Source of the DNA: a virus
Reading direction: 5' to 3' (one strand)
IMG/VR virus record: IMGVR_UViG_3300045988_107970
Span: 1-64,000 of that record
DNA: 64,000 nt
The position numbers were made by a program, and so were the translations under genes. Shown piece after piece: positions 9,082 to 23,250 of this stretch (its first letter is position 1; every line of letters starts with the position of its first letter). The notes under the pieces are model-generated. The model made no database searches. It was not told the origin of the DNA and worked only from the letters and a program-made list of their open reading frames with translations.

Positions 9082-9087
9082 GTTTGG

Positions 9088-9512: not shown

Positions 9513-9528
9513 TTAGATTGGAACTATC

Positions 9529-9735: not shown

Positions 9736-9744
9736 AGTTATTAG

Positions 9745-9769
9745 AGCGCTCTAAATGGGCGCTTTTTTT
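9745..9769 (+). terminator. intrinsic terminator
   Basis: AGCGCTC/GGGCGCT stem, T7 run. Confidence 0.75.
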
Positions 9770-9833
9770 GTTGCATTTGTCGGAAAATATCAGACATTTG
9801 CAACATACATAAATGTGGAGGATCCGTGGAGAA

Positions 9834-9864
9834 GATGTGTAGACAAAGATTCTCGGCCATATGG
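9834..9864 (+). promoter_or_regulatory. early-region motif copy (3' half only)
   Basis: GATGTGTAGACAAAGATTCTCGGCCATATGG. Confidence 0.5.
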
Positions 9865-9919
9865 AATAAATCTTTGGTAATATGTAGTCAAGGAAAGGCG
9901 CTCGGAAAAAGGAGCAGAA

Positions 9920-10261
9920 ATGAGCGATATGGTTTACACTCTTAAGCCCGTCAAGGTTTGTCTTGACGGTGACGATTGCAATGTCTTTGACGCTTATCTG
10001 GTTGGATACGGTAGGCGCGGTTTCTGTGAGCAGAATAGCGGCGGCTATGAGCACCCGCATTTCACCAAGCCCGAAGCTATGCGCGTCATGCGTGCGCTGA
10101 ATCGTGATGCCGACAATGGTATTGGTGATGGTACGCGCTATGATTATCTGTTTGAGACGGATACTTTTATCGAGAACTACAATGGAGATATGATGGTGGT
10201 CAAGCCTGATATTTTCGGCATGTACGAGATGGGCGTTGATATGAGCTGGGTTTTGGCTTAG
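9920..10261 (+). CDS. hypothetical protein (113 aa)
   Basis: ORF track; AAGGAG RBS. Confidence 0.65.
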   Translation: MSDMVYTLKPVKVCLDGDDCNVFDAYLVGYGRRGFCEQNSGGYEHPHFTKPEAMRVMRALNRDADNGIGDGTRYDYLFETDTFIENYNGDMMVVKPDIFGMYEMGVDMSWVLA

Positions 10262-10293
10262 AATAAAGCACGCTTTTAACGGAAGGGAATGCC

Positions 10294-10575
10294 ATGAGCA
10301 GCTTTACCGAATATATGATTGAGCAGATTGAGGATAAGACAAAAAACAGGGTTAAAGTGTTGCCTATGTGCGGAGGTCGTGACGCTGATACTGTTTTGTG
10401 CGATATGATGGAACAAACCGACTTTGAGCGCAATAGAATTGCTAAAGATATTTTTATTTCGTGGAAGTATAGCGATGAAAGTGCGCGTGATGCCATTGAG
10501 CATATGTTTTATTTGTTTACCGAGGTGCCATTTGACGCTTTTCTTATGAGGTGCGACAAGGCATTGTCTAAATAA
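10294..10575 (+). CDS. hypothetical protein (93 aa)
   Basis: ORF track; GGAAGGG RBS. Confidence 0.6.
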   Translation: MSSFTEYMIEQIEDKTKNRVKVLPMCGGRDADTVLCDMMEQTDFERNRIAKDIFISWKYSDESARDAIEHMFYLFTEVPFDAFLMRCDKALSK

Positions 10576-10601
10576 AGTTTTCAAAGTGAAGGGTAGTTAT
10601 C

Positions 10602-10781
10602 ATGGATAACACTATTGCTAAGCTCACTGATGTTATTAACGACCTTATTGAATCAAATGAAAAGAACTACAGTGATGGCACTGGGGTATATCAAGGTGGC
10701 TATCTGGACGGATACCATGACGCATTAGTTGATGTTTTAAATCAAATGCGTATTGAGAACTATCATACTTACTATAACTAG
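10602..10781 (+). CDS. hypothetical small protein (59 aa, below the track cutoff)
   Basis: Own translation MDNTIAKLTDVINDLIESNEKNYSDG...; GAAGGG RBS. Confidence 0.5.
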   Translation: MDNTIAKLTDVINDLIESNEKNYSDGTGVYQGGYLDGYHDALVDVLNQMRIENYHTYYN

Positions 10782-10795
10782 ATTGTGAGTTTATC

Positions 10796-10937
10796 ATGGA
10801 AGATATTGATATTGAAAAGATTTGTGACGTTATCACTTTTTTGCAGGACAACGAGCAATACGGCGATGATTGGGGGCGATGCAATAGCGGAGCTGTACAA
10901 GGTGATTGACGCTATTGAAGGCTTAATGAAGTATTAA
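10796..10937 (+). pseudogene. small ORF with a frame break at a G5 run (10872-10876)
   Basis: Frame 1 gives MEDIDIEKICDVITFLQDNEQYGDDWG. The +1 frame continues DAIAELYKVIDAIEGLMKY to a stop at 10935-10937. Removing one G joins the two. Confidence 0.4.
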
Positions 10938-10940
10938 ACA

Positions 10941-10969
10941 AGGCGGATTATATATCCGCCTTTTCTTTT
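10941..10969 (+). terminator. intrinsic terminator
   Basis: AGGCGGAT/ATCCGCCT stem, T-rich tail. Confidence 0.85.
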
Positions 10970-11075
10970 AGGCATTTAATTGTGTAGGTTATATGTAGTG
11001 TTGTAATTCTCAATGGAATAATAGGTATAGCATAGTAATATATTGTTGTCGAAAGGAAGAGAGAAAGGAATCGAC

Positions 11076-11558
11076 ATGAGTACGCCTTCTATTACTATTT
11101 TGAAGAATCGTGTTTTTGATTGGGAAACCAAAGAGAAGAAGGATGTTACTGTAGCAAAGTTCTATCGCCACTATGACGGATACCTTATGGGGCATGGTAG
11201 CGACATTGCCGCAGCTATTGCAAATGCCGCATGTACGAAGAGCAAGAAGTATATTCGCTTTGACGGAAAGAAGTGTGACGAGCCTGTACTGAACAATCGT
11301 AATTGGTGCCAGCATTTTCTCAAAGAGTTGTGCAAACAAGATATGGATATTGAGTTTGTTGGCAACGATGAAAACTTTTATAGCGATTTCACCTATGTTA
11401 TTACTGGTGACTATGATAACTTTGGTGGAAAGTTTGACATTGACAAGACGGACTATCTAATTAGAATCAACGTCAAGGTCTATGATGGAGACGAGCAGGG
11501 GCAACTACTATTCGATGGTAGCGGTTTGGAATATCTAGGCTGGAAGAACTGGGAGTAA
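11076..11558 (+). CDS. hypothetical protein (160 aa)
   Basis: ATG 11076 in ORF 11043..11558; GAGAAAGGAA RBS. Confidence 0.65.
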   Translation: MSTPSITILKNRVFDWETKEKKDVTVAKFYRHYDGYLMGHGSDIAAAIANAACTKSKKYIRFDGKKCDEPVLNNRNWCQHFLKELCKQDMDIEFVGNDENFYSDFTYVITGDYDNFGGKFDIDKTDYLIRINVKVYDGDEQGQLLFDGSGLEYLGWKNWE

Positions 11559-11571
11559 AACAGCCATTCTA

Positions 11572-11610
11572 ACATGGTGAAAAAGGTGTATACTTTTTTC
11601 ACCATGTTTC
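11572..11610 (+). terminator. intrinsic terminator (13-bp stem)
   Basis: AACATGGTGAAAA/TTTTCACCATGTT. Confidence 0.8.
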
Positions 11611-11647
11611 TTATAACTAATGTGTTAGATATGTGAAAGGTCACAAC

Positions 11648-11893
11648 ATGTGGTATGTGTTTAATAGTATGCTCAATAAAAAATCTTGGAAAAGATATGA
11701 GCTTGAAACGAAAAGGTTTAGTACGTATGATGATGCGAGAAAGTATATAAAAGACAAGGCTGATAAATATCGTAGGTTTTGTATAGACGATGATTCATAC
11801 GTTGAAGATTATGGCAATGCTGTATTTGTTAATTTTCTTGGAATAAGAATTGATTTTAGTATTTTTAAGGCAGACCATATGTTATATTGGTAG
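11648..11893 (+). CDS. hypothetical protein (81 aa)
   Basis: ATG 11648 after GAAAGG RBS. Confidence 0.55.
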   Translation: MWYVFNSMLNKKSWKRYELETKRFSTYDDARKYIKDKADKYRRFCIDDDSYVEDYGNAVFVNFLGIRIDFSIFKADHMLYW

Positions 11894-11899
11894 GTTGTT

Positions 11900-12085
11900 A
11901 TGTGTGAGTATTGCGAGAAGAGTAAGAACATTTATACCAAAGACAAAAGAAGTGTTGTCTATATCGAGTGGGATGATTGTAAACCTAAGCTGGTCACTGT
12001 GAGCGGCGGATTCAATTCATGTGCCATTAGAGTGCCTATATTCTTTTGTCCTTTTTGCGGCAAGGAGTTGCGTGAATTAGATTAG
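11900..12085 (+). CDS. small zinc-ribbon protein (CxxC...CxxC)
   Basis: MCEYCEK...FFCPFCGK; terminator follows. Confidence 0.55.
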   Translation: MCEYCEKSKNIYTKDKRSVVYIEWDDCKPKLVTVSGGFNSCAIRVPIFFCPFCGKELRELD

Positions 12086-12110
12086 AGCGGTTATTATGCC
12101 GCTCTTTTTT
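12084..12110 (+). terminator. intrinsic terminator
   Basis: AGAGCGG/CCGCTCT stem, T6 run. Confidence 0.85.
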
Positions 12111-12219
12111 ATATGGAGAATTATGTAGAGATTATGTGCGGTTTGAATTGTCGCTTGCGTTGTTGTTAGTTGGTAGTGTTATATAAACAACGAAAGGGCG
12201 CGGAAGAAAGGACGCAACC

Positions 12220-12657
12220 ATGTGTGAGTGCAAGCGTTATTCGACTATTGACGATGTTGTTAGCTATGCTATCGACCCTGTTTGCGGTGAGTTTCCAGAT
12301 GATTACGATTTTTATGCTATTGCCCGTGAGCTGTTTGAGTTCGCTTCTGATGTTGACGAGAACGGTGTCCAGCATGGCAATGCGTATTTCGTTGAGCGTG
12401 AGGGCGTGGATTGGGATGCCGTTATGCAAAAGCACGACCACGGTGAAGAGTTTGATAAAATTGTAGACGATGCGTGGCATGGCGAAGGAACGTATACTAT
12501 TTCAGTAATAAATGTGTGGGTACAACACGTTGAGTGTAGTGACAAAAAAGATTTAAAGCATGAGTTGCATGAGTTTTTCGAGTATTTTGATTGTTGGAAC
12601 AATAGGGTTATCGTTACTAAGGTTAGTGATTTTGTAACATTGTTTTTATCTATGTAA
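12220..12657 (+). CDS. hypothetical acidic protein (145 aa)
   Basis: ORF track; GGAAGAAAGGA RBS. Confidence 0.65.
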   Translation: MCECKRYSTIDDVVSYAIDPVCGEFPDDYDFYAIARELFEFASDVDENGVQHGNAYFVEREGVDWDAVMQKHDHGEEFDKIVDDAWHGEGTYTISVINVWVQHVECSDKKDLKHELHEFFEYFDCWNNRVIVTKVSDFVTLFLSM

Positions 12658-12712
12658 CATTTTAGATGTTACAATTCAAAGGATAACGTTACAAACTTGA
12701 TTGGAGAATCAA

Positions 12713-13000
12713 ATGTTTATTCTTGTTAATTATCCTGCTGAATATGGCATTGGTGATGGCATTAGTGAAATTGGTAGGTATGACACACGCGAAGAAGCGG
12801 CAACGAAGATTGCAAAAGATATTATCAATTACTATGGTATAGACATTGATATTGATGATTTTCTTAAAGAAGAGCGTCAATATGATAACGGCGATTTTCG
12901 TTATGACGATGATGCCGATAATCACGTTTGGTTTAACAACTATGAGTGTAGTTGTTATGGTCAGAACATGGAAGATAGTTGGCTTATCATTAAGGCTTAA
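12713..13000 (+). CDS. hypothetical acidic protein (95 aa)
   Basis: ATG 12713 after GGAGAA RBS. Confidence 0.6.
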   Translation: MFILVNYPAEYGIGDGISEIGRYDTREEAATKIAKDIINYYGIDIDIDDFLKEERQYDNGDFRYDDDADNHVWFNNYECSCYGQNMEDSWLIIKA

Positions 13001-13022
13001 ACTTGATTTGATTGGAGTTATT

Positions 13023-13289
13023 GTGGTAGAGTTTGTTTCTTATGATGGCGAGTTCCCGAACCTGTGCAGCGGCACACTCGTGTTGCGCATTGACGGTGAA
13101 GAGGTGACGTTTCCCAAATACTGTATGCGCAGCGGTGGAAGTGTCTCTTTCGATGAAGATTGGCACGAGTATATTTCTACTGGCGAGTGGTCTGTGAAGG
13201 TTCCCAAGCAATATGCTAACATTAAAGACGAGATTGAGCGTTGTGTCAATGAGAACGTTGAATGGGGTTGCTGTGGTGGCTGTATATAA
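13023..13289 (+). CDS. hypothetical Cys-rich protein (88 aa, GTG start)
   Basis: In-frame GTG 13023 after GGAG; C-terminus WGCCGGCI. Confidence 0.5.
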   Translation: MVEFVSYDGEFPNLCSGTLVLRIDGEEVTFPKYCMRSGGSVSFDEDWHEYISTGEWSVKVPKQYANIKDEIERCVNENVEWGCCGGCI

Positions 13290-13319
13290 CAGCTTAAAAT
13301 AGTTCTTTTAGGAGTTATC

Positions 13320-13505
13320 GTGGATAGATATAGACGTGTTAATAAATGGTGGGAAGATAAAGACCGTGAGTGTACTTTCTGCCATTCAAAACTTAGCGTC
13401 AAATATGATGTACCGATTCTTGTGCCTAGCGATGGTGGCGTTAAGGAAACTTGGGTGCCATGCTGTAATGAGTGCGTGTGGCATTGTGTTTTTGGGGCGG
13501 AGTAA
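13320..13505 (+). CDS. small zinc-ribbon protein (61 aa)
   Basis: CTFCH...PCCNEC; AGGAG RBS; terminator follows. Confidence 0.55.
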   Translation: MDRYRRVNKWWEDKDRECTFCHSKLSVKYDVPILVPSDGGVKETWVPCCNECVWHCVFGAE

Positions 13506-13518
13506 TTCGCCCCTTTTT
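13494..13518 (+). terminator. intrinsic terminator
   Basis: GGGGCG/CGCCCC stem, T5 run. Confidence 0.8.
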
Positions 13519-13561
13519 ATTTTACTATCATTTCAGTAATGAATTGAAATTACACTGAAAT

Positions 13562-13605
13562 GAATTGTGTATGATCTGTGAAGGTGGAAAATCTCGACTG
13601 TATCG
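13562..13605 (+). promoter_or_regulatory. early-region conserved motif copy
   Basis: GAATTGTGTATGATCTGTGAAGGTGGAAAATCTCGACTGTATCG. Confidence 0.6.
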
Positions 13606-13660
13606 CTTTGGATTAGAGTATTATATAGACAAGGAAAGAACGGGCGAGAAAGGAACTGTG

Positions 13661-14159
13661 ATGGACATTCAGGTTAAAGAGTACAATGGCAGACAATATA
13701 AGGTTTACAATGACACTTGGTATTGTTTTGATACGCCTGATAGGGTTATTCAGATTCTCGATGGTGCAATAAAAAAACCATGAGCGTATTCGTGTTTTCT
13801 ATGGAGATACTGAAACTGGTCGTGACTGGATGGAGATTTACGATACCATTGGTTATGTTAGTCGCAGTTGTGGTAACGTCAAGATTCCTTTGCTGATTAA
13901 GAATAGTCGTTCTATTGGCGGCACTGGTATTCTTGATTACAGCATTGTTAAGATTACTATTGACAAGGTTATTGTTTATCAGCAAAGTAATTATCGTTTG
14001 CCTAACATGGAGATTCGTGAAGCGAGTGATAACCTTAAAGCAATTGGATATAATTATTCTACATTTGAAGATGGAAAGAATGATTTTAATTGCAAGACCA
14101 TGAAGCAGGCAGAAAATCACATTGATTTTCTTAAAGGCAAGCGCAACCGTGAGTTCTAG
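13661..14159 (+). pseudogene. hypothetical protein split by a frame break at an A7 run (13771-13777)
   Basis: MDIQVKEYNGRQYKV...ILDGAIKK stops at 13781-13783. The +1 frame reads on (K)NHERIRVFYGDTETGRDWMEIYDTIGYV... to 14159. Removing one A joins the two. Confidence 0.5.
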
Positions 14160-14184
14160 TATTTTTAACTGAAAGGATAGAACA

Positions 14185-14541
14185 TTGGCTTATACTATGG
14201 ACTTTGATTATGACGAGACTTATACCCTTATGCGCAAGTTTCGTGAGCTTACCAAACAAGAAGTCCGTATCATGGACTATCTTATGAAAATGTCCGTTTT
14301 CGAGGGGACGTATAGCGACCTTGCCAAGGCCATTGGCGATGAAACGCTGTGTAGTAACGTGCGTAAAGCGCTGTTGCATCTACAAAGCATGGGCATTGTA
14401 AATATCGTAAACGTATATTACGAGGACGAAGCGAAAGAGCACAATACCAACCCCATGAAAGCGTGCTTTATCGTGGACGGATGGATGTACGCTTTTTTAA
14501 TGGGTGGCTGGGACAAGGTTGAGTTCGGTACACGTGCTTAG
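14185..14541 (+). CDS. putative winged-helix DNA-binding protein
   Basis: LTKQEVRIMDYLMK...TYSDLAKAIGDETLCSNVRKALLHLQSMGIV resembles a MarR/wHTH layout; weak call. Confidence 0.4.
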   Translation: MAYTMDFDYDETYTLMRKFRELTKQEVRIMDYLMKMSVFEGTYSDLAKAIGDETLCSNVRKALLHLQSMGIVNIVNVYYEDEAKEHNTNPMKACFIVDGWMYAFLMGGWDKVEFGTRA

Positions 14542-14590
14542 ACTTAACGTGTCTTAAATCGTATTACAGTGGCTTAGAGAGGTGGTTGCC

Positions 14591-14809
14591 ATGAAGGTTG
14601 AGCAACTTAGCGATGATGAAATGTATGAGCTTAAAGACAAGCTATATACTGATTTTTACTACAATCAAGAAGCATTGCCGCAGATGATTGAGAGTGAGCG
14701 CAATGTTGTTGCGACTGCGACATACCCTAGCGACATTCCAAATTGGCTTATGTATAATCTTTTCCACGGTACAGAGTTTACCGAAGATGACTTTTGGTGT
14801 AACTTATAA
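14591..14809 (+). CDS. hypothetical acidic protein (72 aa)
   Basis: ATG 14591 after GGTGG. Confidence 0.5.
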   Translation: MKVEQLSDDEMYELKDKLYTDFYYNQEALPQMIESERNVVATATYPSDIPNWLMYNLFHGTEFTEDDFWCNL

Positions 14810-14850
14810 TTTTACCATATGGGAAAACTTCTTGTATCAAGGTAATTATA

Positions 14851-14864
14851 TTCCCATATGGGAA
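14851..14864. repeat. perfect 14-bp palindrome TTCCCATATGGGAA
   Basis: Self-complementary; partial copy CCATATGGG at 14815-14823. Confidence 0.85.
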
Positions 14865-14870
14865 TATCTA

Positions 14871-14963
14871 ATATCACGTCTCATAGGCGGCAACACTATC
14901 CCACGCCTTTTCTCACTTCTTTCCTTTCATTTGTGTTGCCGTCTATAAGGCGTGATATTTTTT
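14871..14963 (+). terminator. unusually long hairpin (26-bp stem, 36-nt loop) followed by T6
   Basis: Arms 14871-14896 and 14933-14958 pair with one C-A mismatch and two G-U pairs; T run 14958-14963. Confidence 0.7.
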
Positions 14964-14991
14964 GTGGAGAAAATATGAACTTGAAATATAG

Positions 14992-15020
14992 TTGACATGT
15001 AGTTACCAACTATATATACT
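14992..15020 (+). promoter_or_regulatory. sigma70-type promoter
   Basis: TTGACA 14992-14997; 17-nt spacer; TATACT 15015-15020. Confidence 0.7.
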
Positions 15021-15061
15021 ATTAGGCAAGAAAAGAGAAAACCTTAGAGAAAGGTACTTTA

Positions 15062-15937
15062 ATGAACGATACGATGAACCACAAGATTCAGACTTCAACC
15101 GCTTGTATCGGACATTTCATCGACACCACTATTTATGAAACCTACCTTGGTGAGCTTTGGGGTGGTATTCCCTACAACATGCGCGACAAGGCCGATGATG
15201 AGCTTGGTGAGAGCGCGGTTGCGTATATTGAATCTGCTATTTGTGATATTCTCCCGTCTGATTATGATGATGATTTTTATATTACGTATACTGGCACGTA
15301 CCATCCGAAGTATTATAACTTTGAGACCGATTCGGTTCTGTTTGATTTTGCATACACGGATGGACTGTGTGAGTTTATGCTTGGCTACGCTGCCATGAAC
15401 CGTAATAATTTTGAGGAGTTTCTTGAGAAGAAGTATACTTCTCACGATGGCTATGTATCGTTCACGCCTAACAACTGGGATGATTGGTATGATGGGTATG
15501 TAAAGGATGATTTTCGTTGCGTATCTGCCCTGCTTTATTTCATGCTTATTATGTGTTCTTGCGTAAACATTGACGATAACTATAATTTCGTTGACGAGAA
15601 TACATATCAGATGGGGTTTGTAGAGAGCGCTACGCAGATTATTTCCGAAGGTTATACGCCTTATTCATACGCTGTGAAGTATGAGAACGGAATGGTTATA
15701 GCTGTTTTCAGCGATTGTGATAATAACGGGGCTTTCTTCAGCTGCTATCTGGTTGATGCTAACGGCAACGTAATTAAGCATGAGCAGATGTCGGATGCTT
15801 ACGAGGAGTTTAACGACAGTGCATTTGCCGCCTTTGAGTACGGCGATATTGAAAACCTTTTGGATGATGATTCGATTCTTTATCATCTTCGCAGTGAACC
15901 GTGCAGCGTTCCCGATATTCCCGAGCATGAGTGCTAA
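15062..15937 (+). CDS. hypothetical highly acidic protein (291 aa)
   Basis: ORF track; GAGAAAGG RBS; rich in D/E/Y. Confidence 0.7.
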   Translation: MNDTMNHKIQTSTACIGHFIDTTIYETYLGELWGGIPYNMRDKADDELGESAVAYIESAICDILPSDYDDDFYITYTGTYHPKYYNFETDSVLFDFAYTDGLCEFMLGYAAMNRNNFEEFLEKKYTSHDGYVSFTPNNWDDWYDGYVKDDFRCVSALLYFMLIMCSCVNIDDNYNFVDENTYQMGFVESATQIISEGYTPYSYAVKYENGMVIAVFSDCDNNGAFFSCYLVDANGNVIKHEQMSDAYEEFNDSAFAAFEYGDIENLLDDDSILYHLRSEPCSVPDIPEHEC

Positions 15938-15945
15938 TGTGTGAT

Positions 15946-16086
15946 ATGGCGTATTGCATTTGGAATAATTGTCAAGGTGCCTTTGCAGTCAAGAACAAAG
16001 CCGATTCTGAAAAGTTCAAAAAAGATATGCAAAAGCACCTTGACGCGCTATTTAATATGTGCAATAATCTATCGAAGGTTTATTAG
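15946..16086 (+). CDS. hypothetical small protein (46 aa)
   Basis: Own translation MAYCIWNNCQGAFAVKNKADSEKF... Confidence 0.35.
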   Translation: MAYCIWNNCQGAFAVKNKADSEKFKKDMQKHLDALFNMCNNLSKVY

Positions 16087-16109
16087 TGTCCGCATAAAAG
16101 GAGTATAAT

Positions 16110-16523
16110 ATGCTGACTGCGATTTGCAAGAGTGTTGAAGATGCTGATTATTGGGCTTATGACGATACGATTGAGGACGTTCTTGAGGATATTGTCTATG
16201 TAACAGACAGTGAGCATTGTGCTGGCGAGCATGAGTGTGTGGCTTCTGCCCTTGATCCAAAGGGCAATGATTGGTATACTGATTCTTTACAGACAAATGA
16301 AATGATGTTGTCTGATGATGAATTGTTTGTGGTTACTTACTATGTCTATGATGGTAACGGTTCATTTGACGAGCTGGTCGATTTTGCTATCACTAAGAAC
16401 GATATTATCAATAATGTTCTCACGAATAAGTATGTCGAGGGTGCTTATTATTGGACGTTTGGACAGATGCTAAAGACCACTAATGACTGGCTTAATGGCA
16501 AGTACGGTGAGTATGACGATTAG
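16110..16523 (+). CDS. hypothetical acidic protein (137 aa)
   Basis: ORF track; AAGGAG RBS. Confidence 0.65.
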   Translation: MLTAICKSVEDADYWAYDDTIEDVLEDIVYVTDSEHCAGEHECVASALDPKGNDWYTDSLQTNEMMLSDDELFVVTYYVYDGNGSFDELVDFAITKNDIINNVLTNKYVEGAYYWTFGQMLKTTNDWLNGKYGEYDD

Positions 16524-16561
16524 TTTTTAATTGTGCCTTATACGGAAAAGTAAAACGTTTT

Positions 16562-16590
16562 AGCAGGGCTTAAATAGCCCTGCTTTCTTA
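16562..16590 (+). terminator. intrinsic terminator
   Basis: AGCAGGGCT/AGCCCTGCT stem. Confidence 0.75.
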
Positions 16591-16595
16591 TCTAC

Positions 16596-16624
16596 TTGAT
16601 AGCTACTTTTATATGCAATACAAT
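16596..16624 (+). promoter_or_regulatory. sigma70-type promoter of the CTACTTGAYA family
   Basis: TTGATA 16596-16601; 17-nt spacer; TACAAT 16619-16624. Confidence 0.7.
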
Positions 16625-16663
16625 ATAGTTAGACTAATGTAACATATAAAGGAGTGCTTATGT

Positions 16664-16873
16664 ATGTCAAATATAAAGGCAAATGTACAGAAAAATGAAC
16701 GCGCCATGCTTAATACGACAATAAACAAAGGCGTTTTAGATAGTTTTAAAGCCCATTGTAAAGGCGCTGGGATGCCTATGAACACGGTATTGGAGACGTT
16801 CATGGTACAGTTTGTATCGGGCGAGTTCGTGCTAAAGATAGGCAAAAGCAATAAGATTGATATTAAAGACTAG
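16664..16873 (+). CDS. ribbon-helix-helix protein, RelB/DinJ-antitoxin-like (paralog of 17627..17818)
   Basis: LNTTINKGVLDSFKAHCKGAGMPMNTVLETFMVQFVSGEF aligns with the paralog LNTTIDKDVKDAFSAYCKQVGFSMNTVLEILMRQFANGEF. Confidence 0.5.
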   Translation: MSNIKANVQKNERAMLNTTINKGVLDSFKAHCKGAGMPMNTVLETFMVQFVSGEFVLKIGKSNKIDIKD

Positions 16874-16892
16874 CATTTAGCTGGTCTTTTTT
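16868..16892 (+). terminator. intrinsic terminator
   Basis: GACTAGC/GCTGGTC stem (one G-U pair), T6 run. Confidence 0.65.
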
Positions 16893-16907
16893 ATTTGGAA
16901 TATCTAC

Positions 16908-16935
16908 TTGACAACTATATGATAAGTAGTATCAT
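16908..16935 (+). promoter_or_regulatory. sigma70-type promoter of the CTACTTGAYA family
   Basis: TTGACA 16908-16913; 16-nt spacer; TATCAT. Confidence 0.6.
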
Positions 16936-16972
16936 GTATGTTGATAGTCGGAAGAAAGGATAGACCGTGGGT

Positions 16973-17062
16973 ATGAATAGCGATGACTGGAAAATTATAA
17001 TCTTTTGTTTTATTTTTTGTACGACATTGCTTGTCTTAGAGTTTATCCATATATATAGTTAG
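16973..17062 (+). CDS. possible 29-aa hydrophobic peptide
   Basis: Own translation MNSDDWKIIIFCFIFCTTLLVLEFIHIYS; AAAGGA RBS. Confidence 0.3.
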   Translation: MNSDDWKIIIFCFIFCTTLLVLEFIHIYS

Positions 17063-17073
17063 GTTGGAAAATT

Positions 17074-17412
17074 ATGAGTGATGTTGGTTTTATTGTTATG
17101 GAAGACCCCATTATGACTCCACAAGCAGTTACGGAAAAGATTGATAACACGCCCATTGAGATTGCTCAAGCCGCCAAAGACGAGGTGTATGTTGTATGGT
17201 ATGACAATGGTTGTGCATACGAGGATGGTTATCAAGAGATTGATAGAATCTTTTCTAATTATGACGATGCCGCTAAGTATCTTGATGATTGTGGATGTTA
17301 TAAGGATGTTCGAAATGGATATAATGGAGAATATATGATATGGTTTCCACCATATGACGTGGAATATCCTGATTTTGGACACTATACCATTCGTGAGTTT
17401 GATTTGTACTAA
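17074..17412 (+). CDS. hypothetical acidic protein (112 aa)
   Basis: ORF track. Confidence 0.6.
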   Translation: MSDVGFIVMEDPIMTPQAVTEKIDNTPIEIAQAAKDEVYVVWYDNGCAYEDGYQEIDRIFSNYDDAAKYLDDCGCYKDVRNGYNGEYMIWFPPYDVEYPDFGHYTIREFDLY

Positions 17413-17427
17413 TTGTTAGGAGAAAAA

Positions 17428-17625
17428 ATGTCTAAGATTCATCCACGTTGTTGCGCCAACTGCCGTAACTGTGAGCCGTTTGATAACGGTTTCGAGGTTG
17501 AGGACGATGAAGCAGGCTATTGTAAGGCGCATGAGTGGGAGATTGTATACTTGGATGATGATTCGTGGTGCGATGATTTTGTAGCTGTGAAATCGACCCG
17601 TGTTCGTGACGAGGATTGGGATTAA
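17428..17625 (+). CDS. small Cys-rich (zinc-binding?) protein
   Basis: ATG 17428 after GGAGAAAAA; CCANCRNC motif. Confidence 0.55.
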   Translation: MSKIHPRCCANCRNCEPFDNGFEVEDDEAGYCKAHEWEIVYLDDDSWCDDFVAVKSTRVRDEDWD

Positions 17626-17626
17626 C

Positions 17627-17818
17627 ATGGTGGAAAATAACAAGGTCGTACTCAATACAACCATTGACAAAGACGTTAAGGACGCTTTCAGCGCCTACTG
17701 CAAACAGGTTGGTTTCTCTATGAACACGGTGCTAGAGATTCTTATGCGACAATTTGCGAATGGCGAGTTTCGTATTAAGTTTGAAAAGAATAAGTTGGAT
17801 CTTGATTTAGAAGGATAA
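17627..17818 (+). CDS. ribbon-helix-helix protein, RelB/DinJ-antitoxin-like (paralog of 16664..16873)
   Basis: See paralog alignment; ATG 17627 sits 1 nt after the upstream stop. Confidence 0.5.
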   Translation: MVENNKVVLNTTIDKDVKDAFSAYCKQVGFSMNTVLEILMRQFANGEFRIKFEKNKLDLDLEG

Positions 17819-17844
17819 TACCTTATATATAGGTTATAATAGAT

Positions 17845-17875
17845 GGGTGGAACATTTATTGTTCCACCCTTTTTT
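17845..17875 (+). terminator. intrinsic terminator
   Basis: GGGTGGAAC/GTTCCACCC stem, T6 run. Confidence 0.85.
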
Positions 17876-17912
17876 ATTTTCAAAATTGACTGCAAAAATA
17901 TGAGCTAACTAC

Positions 17913-17941
17913 TTGATAACTACATTGATATAAGGTAGAAT
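17913..17941 (+). promoter_or_regulatory. sigma70-type promoter of the CTACTTGAYA family
   Basis: TTGATA 17913-17918; 17-nt spacer; TAGAAT 17936-17941. Confidence 0.7.
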
Positions 17942-17974
17942 ATAGTAAAGAAAGACGAGAGGAAGGGATTGATA

Positions 17975-18778
17975 ATGGCTAGTCCAGCATTTGCGCCAGT
18001 TGTTGTGGAAGAAAAGCAGCAGAACAATATCATTCCGTTTAGTGTTATCATTGGCACTAAAGATGTTAAGCCTAAAAGTCCGAAGGCTCGTGATAACAGC
18101 GGTGGATTAAAGCCTGCTGGTGTATCTTCTGAGGTGTATGCTTTCCGTACCGATGAAGAGATTAAGTCTATGATTGATGTGTTTGACAAGCATATCAATG
18201 AAGCTACCGATGAACACCATCGTCAGCTTGCCAGTCGGAACAAGCTGCTGTTCGTTATTGGTATCAATGTTGGTTTGCGTGCAAGCGATTTGATTACGCT
18301 TAAATGGAGTTTCTTCTTGGACTGCGTTAAGGACGGAGAGTATAAGTTTAAGGACTTCTATACTTTGCAACCTAAGAAAACACGCAAGCAGAAGAAGTTT
18401 GTTAAGTTGTTCTTTAATAACACTGTTAAAAAGATTATTGTAGAGTATCTTAATGAGTTCCCTGTGGACAATTTAGACGAATATATGTTTAAGTCTCGTG
18501 AGGGTGACGGTGCCATTGCAGCCACTACTCTTTGGCGTATTATCAAGAACATCGCCAAGGAAGCGGGGATTAACCAGAATATCGGTAGCCATAGTCTGCG
18601 TAAAACGTGGGGTAGATTCTGTTTTGAACAGGCTGAAGACAAAACAAGGGCTTTGGTTTTATTGCAAAAGGCTTTCAATCATTCTAGTCAAGACGTTACA
18701 CTGCACTATCTTGGATTGCTTGATGATGATATTCAAGATATGTATGAGAGTATTAACATTGGTTATGATTTTATTTAA
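17975..18778 (+). CDS. tyrosine recombinase / phage integrase family protein
   Basis: GLRASDLITLKW (Arg I), GSHSLRKTWG (H-x-x-R), NHSSQDVTLHYLG (catalytic Tyr region). Confidence 0.8.
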   Translation: MASPAFAPVVVEEKQQNNIIPFSVIIGTKDVKPKSPKARDNSGGLKPAGVSSEVYAFRTDEEIKSMIDVFDKHINEATDEHHRQLASRNKLLFVIGINVGLRASDLITLKWSFFLDCVKDGEYKFKDFYTLQPKKTRKQKKFVKLFFNNTVKKIIVEYLNEFPVDNLDEYMFKSREGDGAIAATTLWRIIKNIAKEAGINQNIGSHSLRKTWGRFCFEQAEDKTRALVLLQKAFNHSSQDVTLHYLGLLDDDIQDMYESINIGYDFI

Positions 18779-18793
18779 TGAAAGGTGAGTATC

Positions 18794-18979
18794 ATGGGAC
18801 TGTTTGGTCGGAAAAAAGACATTACCAACATGGTATTTGACTGGGATTTGTACTGGAAAGATATTGAGAATGGCGTTGACAACAAAATTATAGTCAAGAA
18901 GATGGAAAGTCTTGATTACTATGTGAGCAAGGCCGAACAGTCATACGGAAAAATTTTAGTAGCGGCATACGCAAAGTAA
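18794..18979 (+). CDS. hypothetical protein (61 aa)
   Basis: ATG 18794 after AAAGGTGAG. Confidence 0.5.
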   Translation: MGLFGRKKDITNMVFDWDLYWKDIENGVDNKIIVKKMESLDYYVSKAEQSYGKILVAAYAK

Positions 18980-18986
18980 TTGATAT

Positions 18987-19020
18987 AAGGCGGTTGTTTT
19001 TTGACGGCCGCCTTTGTTTA
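18987..19020 (+). terminator. intrinsic terminator
   Basis: AAGGCGG...CCGCCTT stem, T-rich tail. Confidence 0.65.
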
Positions 19021-19081
19021 TTATAATCTTAGATATTGAAGAGTGTTGGAGTGGTAAAACAAAACTAAGAGAAGGGAGCGC

Positions 19082-20023
19082 TTGTCTTTGCGGAAAAATT
19101 TTGATGACTTTATACAGACATTTGATTCCGATAACACGGCAAAGGTGGCTAAATCATTATGTGTTATAGGCGAATATGATTATTCAAATTGCACACCTGT
19201 TGATTTACAGAATATTATATTAGGAATGAATCCTAATAGCCCAAAGGCTATAACGACTATTATATATATCCTTGGTTTGTATGCAAAATATCTTGGCAAT
19301 AAAGATATGGAATATATGTTGAATGACTTGGATCGGAATATTCTTTGGTCATTAGCCAAACCAAATGCTTCTAAGAAATTTATTTCCAATGCGCAGTTTG
19401 AAAAGATATACCATGATATAGGAATGTATGAGGACTATAACGGATTTTATATACAGACACTATTTAGAAGTCTATATGAAGGTATCTATAACGATGATAT
19501 GAGCGTTGTGAAGAACCTTAGAGCGGAAAATATATGGTGGGATGGAACAACGTTAAAGCCCGATAATGGCGAGCCGTATGATATATCTATATCGAAAAAA
19601 TTAGCCGATGATTTGATTAAGCTGAGCAAAATTGATATATGGGAAAGACGGAACAGGTATGGGACATGCAAGATACCAATAGTCGGATTGCATGAAGACA
19701 GCTGTTTCAAGGTGGAGAATCGCAAAGGCAGTTCGGAATATTCCTATAGGTTCAGTTACTATAGGCTATTGCGGAATATATCTAAGAACTATGTTGGATA
19801 TAATCTGTTGCCGCTACAGATATATGTGAGCGGAATAATGCACAGGATAACATTGGAATTAGACAAGTGTGGAATAAATATCAAAGATGCCTTTGCGGAC
19901 AATAACAAGGATAGAAAAGTGAATGGAATAATTTCAGATGAATTGAAGCGCAGCATGTGCGATACGCCAGTGCGGAACTTCAGGGAAATGGTCAAAGGGC
20001 ATATAGATATTTTCTCTCCTTAG
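19082..20023 (+). CDS. hypothetical protein (313 aa), AT-rich; N-terminus vaguely integrase-SAM-like, no catalytic motifs seen
   Basis: ORF track; GAGAAGGGAG RBS, TTG start. Confidence 0.6.
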   Translation: MSLRKNFDDFIQTFDSDNTAKVAKSLCVIGEYDYSNCTPVDLQNIILGMNPNSPKAITTIIYILGLYAKYLGNKDMEYMLNDLDRNILWSLAKPNASKKFISNAQFEKIYHDIGMYEDYNGFYIQTLFRSLYEGIYNDDMSVVKNLRAENIWWDGTTLKPDNGEPYDISISKKLADDLIKLSKIDIWERRNRYGTCKIPIVGLHEDSCFKVENRKGSSEYSYRFSYYRLLRNISKNYVGYNLLPLQIYVSGIMHRITLELDKCGINIKDAFADNNKDRKVNGIISDELKRSMCDTPVRNFREMVKGHIDIFSP

Positions 20024-20138: not shown

Positions 20139-20474
20139 ATGTTCGACTATAGTAAATACGGATTTTCCAATGGCGATAAGACCGAGCTTAAACGTGTTCT
20201 CGAAGACAAGATAGAGTTTGAATCGGTAAGTATAGATACATATATAGCAAGACCATATACATTTATTTTAAGGTCTTCTGAAAAAAATGTCACAGCTTCT
20301 CTAGAGGACGATAGAGTGATAATCAGACGGAATGATCGCTTTAAAACTACTATTTCAAATTTCTCTTTTGACAGCGTATGTGATGTGCAGTTTAAATTGA
20401 CGGAAGATTTTAGGTGTTCTATATTTTTTACCATTGCAAATATCTGCTATAATATCATTGCCTATGTTTGTTGA
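20139..20474 (+). CDS. hypothetical protein (111 aa)
   Basis: ATG 20139 after GAGAGGAG; a 15-bp imperfect inverted repeat at 20074-20114 lies just upstream. Confidence 0.55.
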   Translation: MFDYSKYGFSNGDKTELKRVLEDKIEFESVSIDTYIARPYTFILRSSEKNVTASLEDDRVIIRRNDRFKTTISNFSFDSVCDVQFKLTEDFRCSIFFTIANICYNIIAYVC

Positions 20475-20510
20475 TACATATTTAGTCCGCTGATGCAATG
20501 CGGACTGCCA

Positions 20511-20573
20511 CGAAAAAAGTTTTCAAAATTTTCTAAAAAAGTTGTTGACATAGATATAGGCACCGTGTAATAT
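20511..20573 (+). promoter_or_regulatory. consensus sigma70 promoter P1 with A-rich UP-like element
   Basis: CGAAAAAAGTTTTCAAAATTTTCTAAAAAAG; TTGACA 20545-20550; 17-nt spacer; TAATAT 20568-20573. Confidence 0.8.
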
Positions 20574-20579
20574 AGTTGA

Positions 20580-21806
20580 TGTCAGAAAGAGACGCGGACA
20601 AATCGCAGATCAATCTGATGAGCACCTTGAGAAAAGAAGATGGAAAAAAGTTCAAAAAAGTTCTTGCAACTGATAAAGTTAGATGCTATAATATCTGACA
20701 CAGAGAAACGGAAGTTTCCAGTTGCACCTTGATATTTGCATAAAGTATCAGCGTTGAGAAATCAACGCGAAGGATTGTTTCAACCATGTGTATTCCAAAT
20801 TCCATTGGGTCATGGACGTGTTCAAAGAGTTCCACTATAGAGGATACCCTATAGGTAGGCTTTGCCTGATGCAGGTAACTGACATCTTTAGAAGGGCAGG
20901 AGAGATGGAAAATCTCAACTGAGGGCAGACACGGTGCTGTGATGAAACGCAAGAAAATGGTATCGCTAACTGGTCGCTATCGCAATAGATATGAGGTACG
21001 CACTTCATTGAACCAAGTAGAGGATAGTGTGGCAGCTATGCCAATCGCTTGGAGTGCCACAAGATAGTTGTCCAATTGATGCTGGTAATCAGCTATAAGA
21101 CCAGACGTGAGTACGAGTAGCCCAAATTTGGATAGTATAGAAGATTAATATGCTGAATGGTGGGTGAAAGTTGTTGGTAGCCAATCCAGCCATAGATTGA
21201 CGTAAAGTCGGGATGGAAAGATACGAGGTCGCTCCTTGTGTCTCAGCTCCATTTCCTATGTGACCGAATTACCACTACGTTTTATGAAGGTAAGGCGAAG
21301 GCCTGAGACAATCTTTCGCGTTGGTTTGCTTGACCGACAAAGCGAGGTTCGATTCTGTATTAGGTTTTTGGTTGCTTTGCTGATACAGATGGTGCGGTAC
21401 GATTCCGCAGACGGAAAATACAATGGCTCCTTTCTGTTTTGGTTTCATGGTTGCTCCAATTTAACTCAAACGTATTTTTCGTTAACGCTTAGTCCCAAGG
21501 TTTACGATGGAGATAGCTACCTGACAAGTCTTGGGCGCATGGTGGCGGCGTAATGTCACCCCTTGTCTTAACGGAGGAAGCGGACTGTTAAGCGTACACC
21601 GTTGCGTAAAATCGGTAGCGTTGGAAGGTCTGCCAGCGCGGACGGTATTTAAAATAAGTGACCCCTCTGGTAGTTGGCGAGGACTTTAGTAAGCTACCAC
21701 CGTCTATGGAATATATATTTGCCCTTTACCTTGATTGCGGGCGTTCCTTCAACGAAGCAGGCACCTTGTTGATTAAGTATATATTCCATAGACGGTAATG
21801 TGAACT
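20580..21806 (+). ncRNA. candidate large structured non-coding RNA (about 1.2 kb; family unassigned)
   Basis: Only one RBS-less 105-aa + strand ORF. Visibly higher GC than flanks. Many hairpins, including GNRA-capped stems (20705-20718, 20751-20768) and an 18-bp perfect stem (21700-21717/21778-21795). Two promoters upstream, tRNAs downstream. Confidence 0.5.
20643..20692 (+). promoter_or_regulatory. sigma70 promoter P2 with extended -10 and A-rich UP-like element
   Basis: GAAAAAAGTTCAAAAAAG; TTGCAA 20664-20669; 17-nt spacer; TGcTATAAT (TATAAT 20687-20692). Confidence 0.8.
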
Positions 21807-21892
21807 GGCGGTGTGGCGAAATAGGTATACGCTATGCTTTAATGGGCAAAACAGGTAGCTCCTGTATGCAAGTTCGACTCTTGCCACTGCCA
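21807..21892 (+). tRNA. tRNA-like element, class II shape, aberrant anticodon arm (no assignable anticodon)
   Basis: Acceptor GGCGGTG/CACTGCC; T arm GCAAG-TTCGACT-CTTGC; variable arm ACAGG-TAGCT-CCTGT. The anticodon region TATGCTTTAATGGGCAAA does not form a 5-bp stem with a 7-nt loop. Confidence 0.4.
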
Positions 21893-21948
21893 CGGAACAT
21901 TACCGTCTATTTTGAAATGGTAATACATAGTGGAAAATTGTACGTAGT

Positions 21949-22021
21949 GGGAGATTAGTTAATGTTAGTATAACACCCTGCTTATAACGGGGCGTGACAG
22001 GGGCAGCACCTGTATCTCCTA
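21949..22021 (+). tRNA. tRNA-Ile(UAU)-like, canonical cloverleaf lengths but non-canonical D and T loops
   Basis: Acceptor GGGAGAT/ATCTCCT; D stem GTTA/TAAC; anticodon stem CCCTG/CGGGG; loop CTTATAA. T loop is GGCAGCA instead of TTCRANN, and the D loop has no GG. Confidence 0.55.
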
Positions 22022-22056
22022 CTACCTATAATCTAAATTGTGTATTACCATTATAT

Positions 22057-22138
22057 GCCGCAGTAATCCTTTAAAGACGAGGGTTGGACTGTAAATCCAA
22101 TGTCTATGACTGGCTAGGAGCGTTACCTAGATGCGGCA
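22057..22138 (+). tRNA. tRNA-Tyr(GUA)-like with long variable arm, irregular D arm and non-canonical T loop
   Basis: Anticodon arm TTGGA-CTGTAAA-TCCAA; T arm CTAGG-AGCGTTA-CCTAG; acceptor GCCGCAG/ATGCGGC with a G-A mismatch. Confidence 0.5.
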
Positions 22139-22189
22139 CCTGTATCTATTATTACACACAATATAAGTTGTGTATTACCTTAATATAAT

Positions 22190-22271
22190 GTCCGATTGGT
22201 GGAATTGGCAGACACGACAGACTCAAAATCTGTTGCCGAAAGGCGTAACGGTTCGACCCCGTTATCGGACA
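22190..22271 (+). tRNA. tRNA-Leu(CAA)
   Basis: Acceptor GTCCGAT/ATCGGAC; D loop with GG; anticodon arm ACAGA-CTCAAAA-TCTGT; variable arm GCC-GAAA-GGC; T arm AACGG-TTCGACC-CCGTT. Confidence 0.85.
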
Positions 22272-22321
22272 CCCAGATTACTTAGATATAATGTTGTTTA
22301 CATTATATCTGTAATATAAAC

Positions 22322-22396
22322 GGGCGCGTGGACTAATGGATAAGTCAACTGGCCTCTACCCAGTTCATCATGCGGGTTCGACTCCTGCCGCGTCCG
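22322..22396 (+). tRNA. tRNA-Arg(UCU)-like (C at position 33, 7-nt variable region)
   Basis: Acceptor GGGCGCG/CGCGTCC; D arm GACT-AATGGATA-AGTC; anticodon arm ACTGG-CCTCTAC-CCAGT; T arm GCGGG-TTCGACT-CCTGC. Confidence 0.7.
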
Positions 22397-22507
22397 CCTA
22401 GTTGTAAACGCAGAATGGCTAGTCAGAAAGTAGCTAGTCTGATGAAAGGTGAAACCTACACACCAAGCCATTCTGCTTACATATATTGTAGGGGATTGTA
22501 GGTCTGT

Positions 22508-22942
22508 ATGACTGAATCAAAAACAAATAAAGGAATATCAACAGAACTTAAGTTTTTTAGTTATTGCTTGGATAATGATATTGTTGTTTGTCAGCCAGTA
22601 ACTACAGATACACCGTATGATTGTATTTTTGAAGGAAAATCTGGACGCCTTTATAAAGCACAATTAAAAACTGGATATAGACCATCCAAGTTAAAAGACC
22701 AGAATGTTTTTGCGTATAGTACAAGAACAAGTCATTTTTCAAAAGACGGTGTTTCTTCTCATGGATATACAAAAGGACAGATTGATGGTTTTATTACTTA
22801 TTTTAATGAATTGCCAGATATGTTTTTTTATATTCCAATTGAATTAAGTAAAAAAGGTTCAATGAGGATTTACTTTGGAGACAAGCCTACTGCTCAATCA
22901 AATTATTATAAAGATTTTTTATTGGATTTTTCTAAATTATAG
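22508..22942 (+). CDS. PD-(D/E)XK endonuclease, I-Ssp6803I-like (PDDEXK_5-type) putative homing endonuclease
   Basis: 144 aa. GISTELKFFSYCLDNDIVVCQPVTTDTPYDCIF...LYKAQLKT fits the E...PxD...(E/Q)xK layout. AT-rich, embedded between tRNA genes. Confidence 0.55.
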   Translation: MTESKTNKGISTELKFFSYCLDNDIVVCQPVTTDTPYDCIFEGKSGRLYKAQLKTGYRPSKLKDQNVFAYSTRTSHFSKDGVSSHGYTKGQIDGFITYFNELPDMFFYIPIELSKKGSMRIYFGDKPTAQSNYYKDFLLDFSKL

Positions 22943-22955
22943 ATATAATATATAT

Positions 22956-23038
22956 GGAAACATGGCGTAATGGTAGCGCAGCACCCTGCTAAGGTGTCCT
23001 AGCGTAAGCTAGTCTGAGTTCGATTCTCAGTGTTTCCG
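22956..23038 (+). tRNA. tRNA-Ser(GCU)
   Basis: Acceptor GGAAACA/TGTTTCC; anticodon loop CTGCTAA; variable arm CTAGC-GTA-GCTAG; T arm CTGAG-TTCGATT-CTCAG. Confidence 0.85.
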
Positions 23039-23250
23039 CCTTGTATATTTATGCCCCTATTGGCAGTGGCTTTGAAGCTGTGCCGAAAACAGCTTTTGCG
23101 GTAGAATAGGCAACGCCGCATAGCTATTCGGGAGGATAGCGAGCCTTCTTGCTAGGAGATAAGCAAGTGCTTTCACGGAGTAATTGGTGAGCTGAAACAC
23201 CGTAAAAACAGATCCTCTGGATGTGCCGTGAATACGCATCCTGTTTTTTT
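23039..23250 (+). promoter_or_regulatory. structured 5' leader ending in an intrinsic terminator (attenuator or riboswitch candidate, class unassigned)
   Basis: Hairpins at 23075-23095, 23123-23140, 23148-23167 and 23175-23203. Terminator GGATGTG/CGCATCC plus T7 at 23219-23250, 30 nt before the SPFH gene. Confidence 0.45.

Follow-up and report, generated by a model that had tools for sequence, protein, structure and literature searches.

A ROOL RNA and a second structured RNA with a RAGATH-36-like core in the transfer RNA island of a large phage

What occupies 1332 bases (20475–21806) without an evident gene, directly upstream of transfer RNA (tRNA) genes? The question is raised by a 64,000-nucleotide (nt) stretch of viral DNA (positions 1 to 64,000 of the IMG/VR virus record IMGVR_UViG_3300045988_107970), which as a whole is called the window below. 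An earlier note, made from the sequence alone, had proposed a single giant structured noncoding RNA, possibly of the ROOL or GOLLD class or new. Our analysis indicates with high confidence that the locus is a noncoding RNA operon in the tRNA island of a large phage, consisting of a ROOL RNA, a second structured RNA, a hairpin, and a tRNA-like gene with tRNAs. Its core, a ROOL RNA in the usual setting, belongs to what is already known and is mostly ordinary; it takes 564 bases of the flagged interval. What is new, on a modest scale, is that RAGATH-36 is a fragment of a larger tRNA-linked phage RNA, and that the remaining 480 nt do not simply prolong ROOL. Judging from the encoded proteins, which include a DnaE-type polymerase (PolIII-alpha), a DnaB-type helicase, two integrase-family proteins, an intein-bearing C5 methylase, and an SPFH protein, the source of the window is a large phage. 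The main elements are as follows.

20760–21323, + strand: full-length ROOL RNA (Rfam RF03087)
21338–21616, + strand: 5' and central part of the second RNA, defined by a RAGATH-36 core match, shared motif order, and compensatory changes
21617–21706, + strand: 3' domain of the second RNA, defined by the covariance model R1 (see below), covariation, helix search, and minimum-energy fold
21699–21796, + strand: RNA hairpin with 18-bp arms (21700–21717 and 21778–21795) and an interior (21718–21777)

The ROOL RNA and the coding status of the locus

In an Rfam scan of the whole window, the ROOL model (RF03087) scores 290.3 bits against a gathering score of 99.1 (E = 1.4e-65), and the alignment spans model positions 1–574 of 574 without truncation. 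The terminal closing helix is formed by 20760–20781 with 21305–21323. The alignment shows the annotated pseudoknots, most bracketed pairs are standard ones, and the conserved stretches seen in it include CUGAAUG.UGGGUGAAAGUU and GGUCGCUCC. The loop region at about model positions 357–400 is met by a shorter, AU-rich, unaligned stretch near 21106–21150. ROOL RNAs have been described with a variable, unconserved linker (PMC12286853), and this stretch lies at the place of that linker.

ROOL is a class of RNAs of phages, prophages, and bacteria, often found near tRNA islands (Weinberg et al., 2017, PMC5737381; PMC12286853). Here it lies among phage replication and integration genes, with six tRNA or tRNA-like genes at most 1.8 kb downstream. 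It is 91–99% identical in 11 relatives, and scores 296 and 280 bits in the relatives L155 and L162, respectively. Thus, the window contains a typical ROOL in a typical place. Members of the class assemble unaided into hollow cages, either hexameric or octameric (PMC12286853; reviewed in PMC12990946), as would be expected of this copy.

The scan, which the earlier note had recommended, decides between the two classes named there: ROOL is found at full length, and GOLLD has no match. The same holds for OLE, HEARO, group I and II introns, RNase P RNA, and transfer-messenger RNA (tmRNA), all of which, like GOLLD, had no Rfam match in 20400–22600 at E ≤ 5 or in 21324–22200 at E ≤ 10; ARAGORN detected no tmRNA either.

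Relatives were collected in three steps. A ROOL core pattern retrieved 113 viral contigs, 11 of which share the whole module with the window; a RAGATH-36 core pattern yielded 38 contigs; and a pattern of two 5' motifs only yielded 58, including L162, whose module is related to the window's but more diverged. Against INPHARED (GenBank phages), distant blastn with the locus gave only short matches to the tRNA-Leu gene and no annotated relative. A scan of 185,579 species genomes with a family-specific motif produced 24 matches, all of them chance ones and none with the module.

Other parts of the initial description hold as well. The G+C content of the locus is elevated (0.44–0.48 over 20700–21900, compared with 0.33–0.38 upstream and 0.27–0.32 downstream), and the region 20475–22507 has no credible coding sequence in the six-frame list of open reading frames (ORFs), in family searches, or on comparison with relatives. 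That a missed protein-coding gene accounts for the conservation has a negligible probability. The sole + strand ORF of at least 100 amino acids in this region (21236–21553, 105 amino acids, TTG start) would be the natural candidate, but it has no Pfam or PHROG match and is disrupted by frameshifts (indels that are not multiples of three) or early stops in 10 of 11 related contigs. Its variable columns are distributed over the codon positions as 25/20/25, i.e., with neither codon periodicity nor an excess at the third position, and it straddles the boundary of two RNAs, each backed by covariance models. Codon-like substitution had been named at the outset as a sign of a missed gene, and the noncoding reading survives that check.

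The second RNA

The second RNA (21338–21706, about 369 nt) begins 15 nt after ROOL. Its middle part, 21390–21565, matches RAGATH-36 (RF03104), whose 128-nt model stems from the 2017 catalogue of Weinberg, over the full model span with 37.0 bits (E = 1e-5 to 2e-5). The score is lowered by a 61-nt insertion in the second hairpin and by sequence divergence; as it falls below the gathering score, we treat the second RNA as a divergent relative rather than a formal member. In a literature search, with the supplement of the 2017 catalogue outside its range, no paper discussing RAGATH-36 was found. The following features, from 5' to 3', were delineated.

21340–21355, + strand: AAGCGAGGTTCGATTC motif
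21354–21389, + strand: hairpin H1
21393–21409, + strand: T-loop-type hairpin
between the T-loop-type hairpin and TTAACGCTTAG, + strand: long hairpin H2
21482–21492, + strand: TTAACGCTTAG
21494–21535, + strand: stem CCCAAG/CTTGGG
21541–21560, + strand: hairpin
about 21566–21612, + strand: extra hairpin domain
21618–21624/21633–21639, + strand: hairpin H5
21627–21630 (GGTC) with 21660–21663 (GACC), + strand: loop pseudoknot PK1
21640–21646 (GGACGGT) with 21699–21705 (ACCGTCT), + strand: closing long-range helix P-outer
21669–21675 (GGTAGTT) with 21692–21698 (AGCTACC), + strand: long-range helix P-inner

The core motifs of RAGATH-36 follow one another in the window in the expected order: the T-loop-type hairpin, UAACGCUUAG, a long stem closing at GGGCG (21494–21537), and a 3' hairpin. 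Raw inspection and motif bookkeeping revealed the same motifs in the same order as in the window's second RNA in about 60 phage contigs. In this extended family, the 5' part comprises AAGCGAGGUUCGAU with a variable hairpin, the T-loop-type hairpin, another variable hairpin, UAACGCUUAG with the long stem, and a hairpin; the 3' part comprises H5 with the loop GAAAUGCUGCC, then AAGUGCAUCC, and the tail GGUAAA-N6-CCC. The segment 21338–21706 carries every one of these features with the order unchanged, and compensatory changes within the family are seen by eye in H1 and in the stem 21494–21535. On comparison of these sequences, the Rfam model covers only the middle of an RNA of 250–430 nt. The 5' extension and 3' domain of a canonical member had no match in any Rfam 15 family.

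Single-sequence nhmmer comparison of the window's downstream segment with canonical RAGATH-36 loci reached only E = 0.01–0.3, and homology was therefore established through motifs, covariation, and a covariance model. When the second RNA was aligned globally over its whole length with MAFFT (A1), the long insertion caused the window family to be misaligned, so that the quantitative work was restricted to the 3' domain. There, P-outer pairs the strand just 3' of H5 with the last 5–8 nt, and P-inner pairs the loop after GUGCAUCC with the tail. A helix search with a shuffled-tail control detected the two helices, contiguous with each other, in nearly all of 35 non-redundant members and in about 14 sequence versions.

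Covariation was measured in a MAFFT alignment (A2) of 16 members, all from outside the window's clade. In it, 87% of cells are paired (72% after shuffling and 38–53% when partners are slid), 16 of 23 pairs have changed on both sides (9.8 and 2–8, respectively), and the covariation score is 0.47 (0.18 and 0.07–0.12); the observed values were attained in none of 500 shuffles. The covariance model R1, built from A2, contains no sequence of the window's clade and lies wholly outside the Rfam model. It nevertheless matches the window at 21617–21706 over model positions 1–118 of 118 (35.1 bits, E about 4e-7), the next match in the 64 kb having E = 3.5, and recovers 12 of 12 relatives plus many non-seed members. 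An alignment of 43 distinct rows from the R1 matches (A3) has 93% of cells paired, compared with 65% after shuffling, and 22 of 23 pairs changed on both sides.

The pseudoknot PK1 was left out of R1 and hence provides an unbiased test of the fold. It is 97% paired and occurs as AUGC:GCAU (28 matches), GUGC:GCAC (3), and GGUC:GACC (12 sequences, the window's clade); in the last form, the fold has been kept through three coordinated changes per side. In the relative L032, P-outer is compensated (GGGCGGT with ACCGCCT) while the 3' arm of the downstream hairpin is unchanged. The minimum-energy fold of 21617–21706 alone gives H5, P-outer, and P-inner. These data establish the homology and the conserved fold of the second RNA, and the covariation across homologs that the earlier note had called for is present, above shuffled controls, in the helices of the 3' domain. 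Two further conjectures, a pairing of AAGCG (21340–21344) with CGCTT (21486–21490) and the interpretation of the motifs GGUUCGAU and GGUACGAUU as a "double T-loop", are neither supported nor rejected by covariation, since the motifs are nearly invariant.

R1 also gave second matches away from the first copy in four contigs (L127 9116–9218, L131 392–494, L123 6786–6901, and L135 2338–2408); some phages may carry two copies or a shortened variant.

The second RNA and ROOL occur in tandem only in the window's clade (13 contigs). An R1 search of 100 other ROOL loci (836 kb) returned no match, which rules out the two RNAs as habitual partners. In 18 loci scanned with Rfam, every copy of the second RNA lies among phage tRNA genes, the RAGATH-36 gathering score is reached in only four, and ROOL is present only in the window's clade. 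Since each RNA occurs elsewhere without the other, we regard them as independent modules that share a habitat.

The association with tRNAs is often immediate. In nine R1 matches from at least seven lineages, a tRNA gene starts between −2 and +1 nt from the end of the element, and the anticodons of the abutting tRNAs include Lys-UUU, Glu-UUC, Gln-UUG, Met-CAU, Leu-UAA, and Gly-UCC. Abutment holds for part of the family; in the window, the tRNA-like gene follows 100 nt later, with the hairpin in between.

Three side observations concern the same islands. A conserved small ORF (approximately YEFRxVRGHIEVFLDGxFxFSADTxxEA) follows a RAGATH-36-type element, or the element and one tRNA, in L152, L156, L170, and similar contigs. 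In L121, L125, L138, L142, L144, and L148, the element and the next tRNA-Glu stand about 445 nt apart, and the spacer between them is conserved; it may be yet another RNA. Finally, a Pistol ribozyme (L143 5521–5590), RAGATH-4 (L128 224–354), and RAGATH-16 (L132 10860–10930) score above their respective gathering scores.

It follows that the 1.3 kb is not the single giant RNA proposed initially but two unrelated RNAs in tandem, ROOL of 564 nt and the second RNA of about 369 nt, and then a hairpin. A single molecule, be it one giant RNA that represents a new class or a ROOL greatly prolonged at its 3' end, is very unlikely. Proximity would speak for it, as the two RNAs are 15 nt apart, no terminator stands between them, and the block from P1 (the first promoter, see below) to the tRNA-like gene is co-inherited in 13 contigs. 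Against this, ROOL closes on itself through its own terminal helix, the second RNA has a separate closing helix and is found without ROOL in about 45 other phage contigs, and it is missing from the 100 other ROOL loci.

Promoters, hairpin, and the proposed processing

Upstream of ROOL, the following features precede the structured RNAs.

20517–20573, + strand: promoter P1, with an UP-like A-tract, −35 TTGACA (20545–20550), a 17-nt spacer, and −10 TAATAT (20568–20573)
20636–20692, + strand: promoter P2, with A-tracts, −35 TTGCAA (20664–20669), a 17-nt spacer, and extended −10 TGcTATAAT (20684–20692)
20699–20759, + strand: presumed 5' leader from P2, with the hairpin GAAAC-GGAA-GTTTC (20705–20718), kept in relatives

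P1 and P2 are conserved across relatives, and their motifs suggest promoter activity. In 10 relatives, both hexamers of P1 are invariant, as are the −10 of P2 and its TG; the −35 of P2 reads TTGTAA in L079 only. L021 and L079 have an unrelated gene upstream, and their homology with the window begins at the A-tract of P1 (about 20517), which indicates that the module starts at the promoter. The tandem sigma70-type promoters thus stand with the positions and motifs first assigned to them, but not as the two best in the window: a window-wide consensus scan gave 61 sites at 10/12 or better and 8 at 11/12, with P1 and P2 not at the top, and the count of promoter-like sites in the region is not above that in shuffles. 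Between ROOL and the tRNAs there is one terminator-like site, a weak one that coincides with a helix of the RAGATH-36 core.

All helices listed in the initial description are present in the sequence, and most have found their place in structured RNAs: GTGGCA/TGCCAC in ROOL, CCCAAG/CTTGGG and the T-arm-like hairpin in the RAGATH-36 core, and the 18-bp stem as a real and conserved hairpin. The leader hairpin GCGTTGA-GAAA-TCAACGC (20751–20768) has not, as it overlaps the 5' strand of ROOL and shares bases needed by the ROOL closing helix, so that it could at most be a transient alternative. The 3' end of ROOL (GCGTTG) recurs in its 5' arm. This hairpin might form transiently during transcription, in parallel with the competition seen at the 3' end of the second RNA.

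That competition involves the 18-bp hairpin, which in the window's clade occupies the position taken by a tRNA in other phages. Its arms are conserved in 12 of 12 loci, with G.U wobbles and one full compensation, while the interiors belong to at least six unrelated types of 46–153 nt. The arm variants (A:T, G:T, T:G, and G:C) keep the stem in the + strand RNA but would be mismatched in DNA or in the − strand; the stem is hence conserved at the RNA level. The window's interior has no match elsewhere in the window, and as an antisense or guide against the phage itself it yielded only chance matches of 8–10 nt there. In L079, a duplication at 10753–11142, in which a hairpin and the 5' portion of the tRNA-like gene precede a second hairpin and the complete tRNA-like gene, indicates that the arms of the hairpin, or the sequences flanking them, have recombined.

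With its first six bases, the 5' arm also supplies the 3' strand of P-outer, which makes the hairpin and the closed second RNA mutually exclusive. In folding calculations, the conserved fold is favoured as long as the RNA ends at or before 21777; when the 3' arm is added, a 22-bp hairpin is favoured and H5 and P-outer are disrupted.

A scheme for expression can be proposed on this basis. P1 and P2 most likely drive a single + strand transcript that contains ROOL, the second RNA, the hairpin, the tRNA-like RNA, and the tRNAs, and these would then be cut apart, with RNase P and RNase Z acting at the tRNA ends. In other phages, where the closing helix ends 0–2 nt before the 5' end of a tRNA, the known action of RNase P would create the 3' end of the second RNA. 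In the window's clade, where the junction holds a hairpin, a nuclease specific for double strands, such as RNase III, is the most likely cutter. A cut in the stem would release the tRNAs from the two large RNAs and make the closing helix available; indeed, the hairpin should have to be removed or cut for the second RNA to keep its conserved fold. The broadest form of this reading is that 21338–21706 belongs to an undescribed class of large pseudoknotted phage RNAs (250–430 nt, with RAGATH-36 as the central third), that it is co-expressed with ROOL in this clade, and that its competition with the hairpin could act as a processing-dependent folding switch. We put it forward tentatively, at somewhat less than even odds.

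Several points weigh against our main reading of the locus as an RNA operon. The RAGATH-36 match stays below the gathering score (37 vs. 70 bits), and the E-values of R1 are rough owing to a shortened calibration. Within the window's clade, the 3' domain is 95–99% identical, and hence most of the covariation comes from comparisons between clades; in PK1, the window family counts as a single event. P1 and P2 are unexceptional by score and draw their support from conservation. Co-transcription, promoter use, and each processing step are inferred from the sequence, and the role of RNase III at the hairpin is putative. As the hairpin is predicted to be thermodynamically favoured over the conserved fold in the full-length precursor, it could instead have a regulatory role.

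Such a role is part of an alternative that we consider unlikely, namely, that the second RNA is a cis-acting leader controlling the processing, stability, or expression of the downstream tRNAs or gene, with the hairpin and the closing helix forming a switch. The rivalry of the hairpin and P-outer for the same bases is compatible with this, as is the abutment of the second RNA on tRNA 5' ends in many phages; in some others it stands directly before the conserved small ORF or a lipoprotein-like ORF, where, judged by eye, pairing between the ribosome-binding site and its CU-rich 3' tail is conceivable. Yet the downstream partner varies widely (tRNAs of at least six anticodons, ORFs, the hairpin), which is unusual for a cis-regulator, the large size and the pseudoknot resemble a free-standing RNA, and the context points to no ligand or effector. 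For the hairpin itself, the main alternative is that the inverted repeat 21700–21795 acts as DNA, i.e., as a site of recombination or cassette exchange or as a protein-binding palindrome. A role in DNA would explain why interiors are swapped between close relatives, unrelated interiors being found in contigs otherwise 95–99% identical, and the duplication in L079 and the two integrase-family genes 1.7–3.7 kb upstream of the repeat fit it too. We nonetheless hold it to be improbable, because the G:T and T:G wobbles and the one G:C compensation preserve the RNA stem at the expense of a DNA cruciform, and because the arms share sequence with the 3' strand of a conserved RNA helix; of the known recombination core motifs none was recognized, though no systematic search was made. 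Processing of the stem as RNA therefore remains our preferred reading of the hairpin.

The tRNA array, neighbouring genes, and comparison with known systems

As had been noticed at the outset, a tRNA-like element and tRNAs adjoin the locus; ARAGORN and Rfam agree on this.

21807–21893, + strand: tRNA-like gene with a long variable arm and a 4–6-nt "anticodon" loop (UUAAUG), reported by ARAGORN as "tRNA-???"
21949–22022, + strand: degenerate tRNA-like gene with anticodon TAT and a non-canonical T loop, found by ARAGORN in mitochondrial mode only and not by Rfam or default ARAGORN
22057–22140, + strand: degenerate tRNA-Tyr(GTA)-like gene with a non-canonical T loop, found by ARAGORN only at the relaxed threshold -ps90
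22189–22275, + strand: tRNA-Leu(CAA), a normal tRNA (ARAGORN, Rfam)
22322–22398, + strand: tRNA-Arg(TCT), a normal tRNA (ARAGORN, Rfam)
22956–23040, + strand: tRNA-Ser(GCT), a normal tRNA (ARAGORN, Rfam)

The first tRNA-like gene scores 38.5 bits with the Rfam tRNA model (gathering score 29). Its cloverleaf shows compensatory changes in all four stems, nine pairs being kept through changes on both sides in eight relatives. It has no canonical 7-nt anticodon loop, and the loop of 4–6 nt (UUAAUG) is kept in all relatives. Such a conserved, compensated cloverleaf with a short loop indicates a maintained RNA for which normal decoding is not possible.

Each of the two degenerate tRNA-like genes is followed by one copy of a 54-nt direct repeat (22003–22056 and 22133–22186, 80% identical), suggesting duplication within the array. 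Just past tRNA-Arg, ahead of the following gene, 45 nt are enclosed by a perfect inverted repeat of 11 bp (GCAGAATGGCT / AGCCATTCTGC; 22410–22476); lacking a T-run, the repeat is not an obvious terminator. The gene between tRNA-Arg and tRNA-Ser (22508–22942) belongs to a PD-(D/E)XK endonuclease family (PF11645).

Just upstream of the RNA operon, two integrase-family ORFs (17969–18778 and 19082–20023) lie next to each other; the latter has a TTG start and only a weak PHROG match. Further upstream, the region 1–20000 looks like an early-gene region, with numerous short ORFs on the + strand and, on the same strand, many strong sigma70-like sites (e.g., at 9053, 14992, and 16040). Stop-codon reassignment was considered as an explanation for these short ORFs and the odd tRNA-like gene and was rejected, as ORF coverage rises by about the same amount whichever of the three stops is read through. 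Elsewhere in the window, at 44661–46685, a C5 cytosine DNA methyltransferase is split by a Hint/intein domain (residues about 75–440).

Few natural RNAs besides ROOL are known to form closed cages unaided, and a further well-delimited copy with a conserved promoter and defined neighbours helps to frame experiments. RAGATH-36 emerges as the core of a larger covarying RNA that shares the habitat of ROOL and GOLLD and is often fused to the 5' end of a tRNA; if the broad reading is true, its class would join these two as the third large RNA of phage tRNA islands. The locus thus offers a concrete system in which to ask whether phage tRNAs serve large RNAs as targets, partners, or means of action, and how these large RNAs are freed from tRNA precursors.

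Among known systems, the closest is ROOL itself, with which the locus shares a full-length model match, the closing helix, the pseudoknots, the linker site, and a phage tRNA array as neighbour. The length is 564 nt here against a class average of 581 nt, and the ROOL part shows no difference of its own; the oddity is the second RNA 15 nt downstream, absent from the 100 other ROOL loci. GOLLD (RF01998) is likewise a large phage-associated RNA that forms cages and lies beside tRNAs, sometimes embedding one, but the locus is not a member, as it matches GOLLD in neither sequence nor structure even at E up to 5–10. With RAGATH-36, the second RNA shares the T-loop-type hairpin CGGUACGAUUCCG, UAACGCUUAG with the long stem closing at GGGCG, and the next hairpin, all in the same order, as well as the phage tRNA-island setting. 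It differs from the model in being longer, as canonical members also are, by a 5' extension (AAGCGAGGUUCGAU and a hairpin) and a pseudoknotted 3' domain of 90–135 nt.

The hairpin, finally, resembles the RNase III processing stems of bacterial rRNA operons and of phage T7 early transcripts. In both cases a long, nearly perfect duplex lies in a polycistronic noncoding transcript between products to be separated, and only the stem is conserved. In contrast to the rRNA and T7 sites, where this is not a known feature, the interior is replaced here between close relatives; moreover, the window's stem competes with the closing helix of the upstream RNA, and its cleavage is a prediction.

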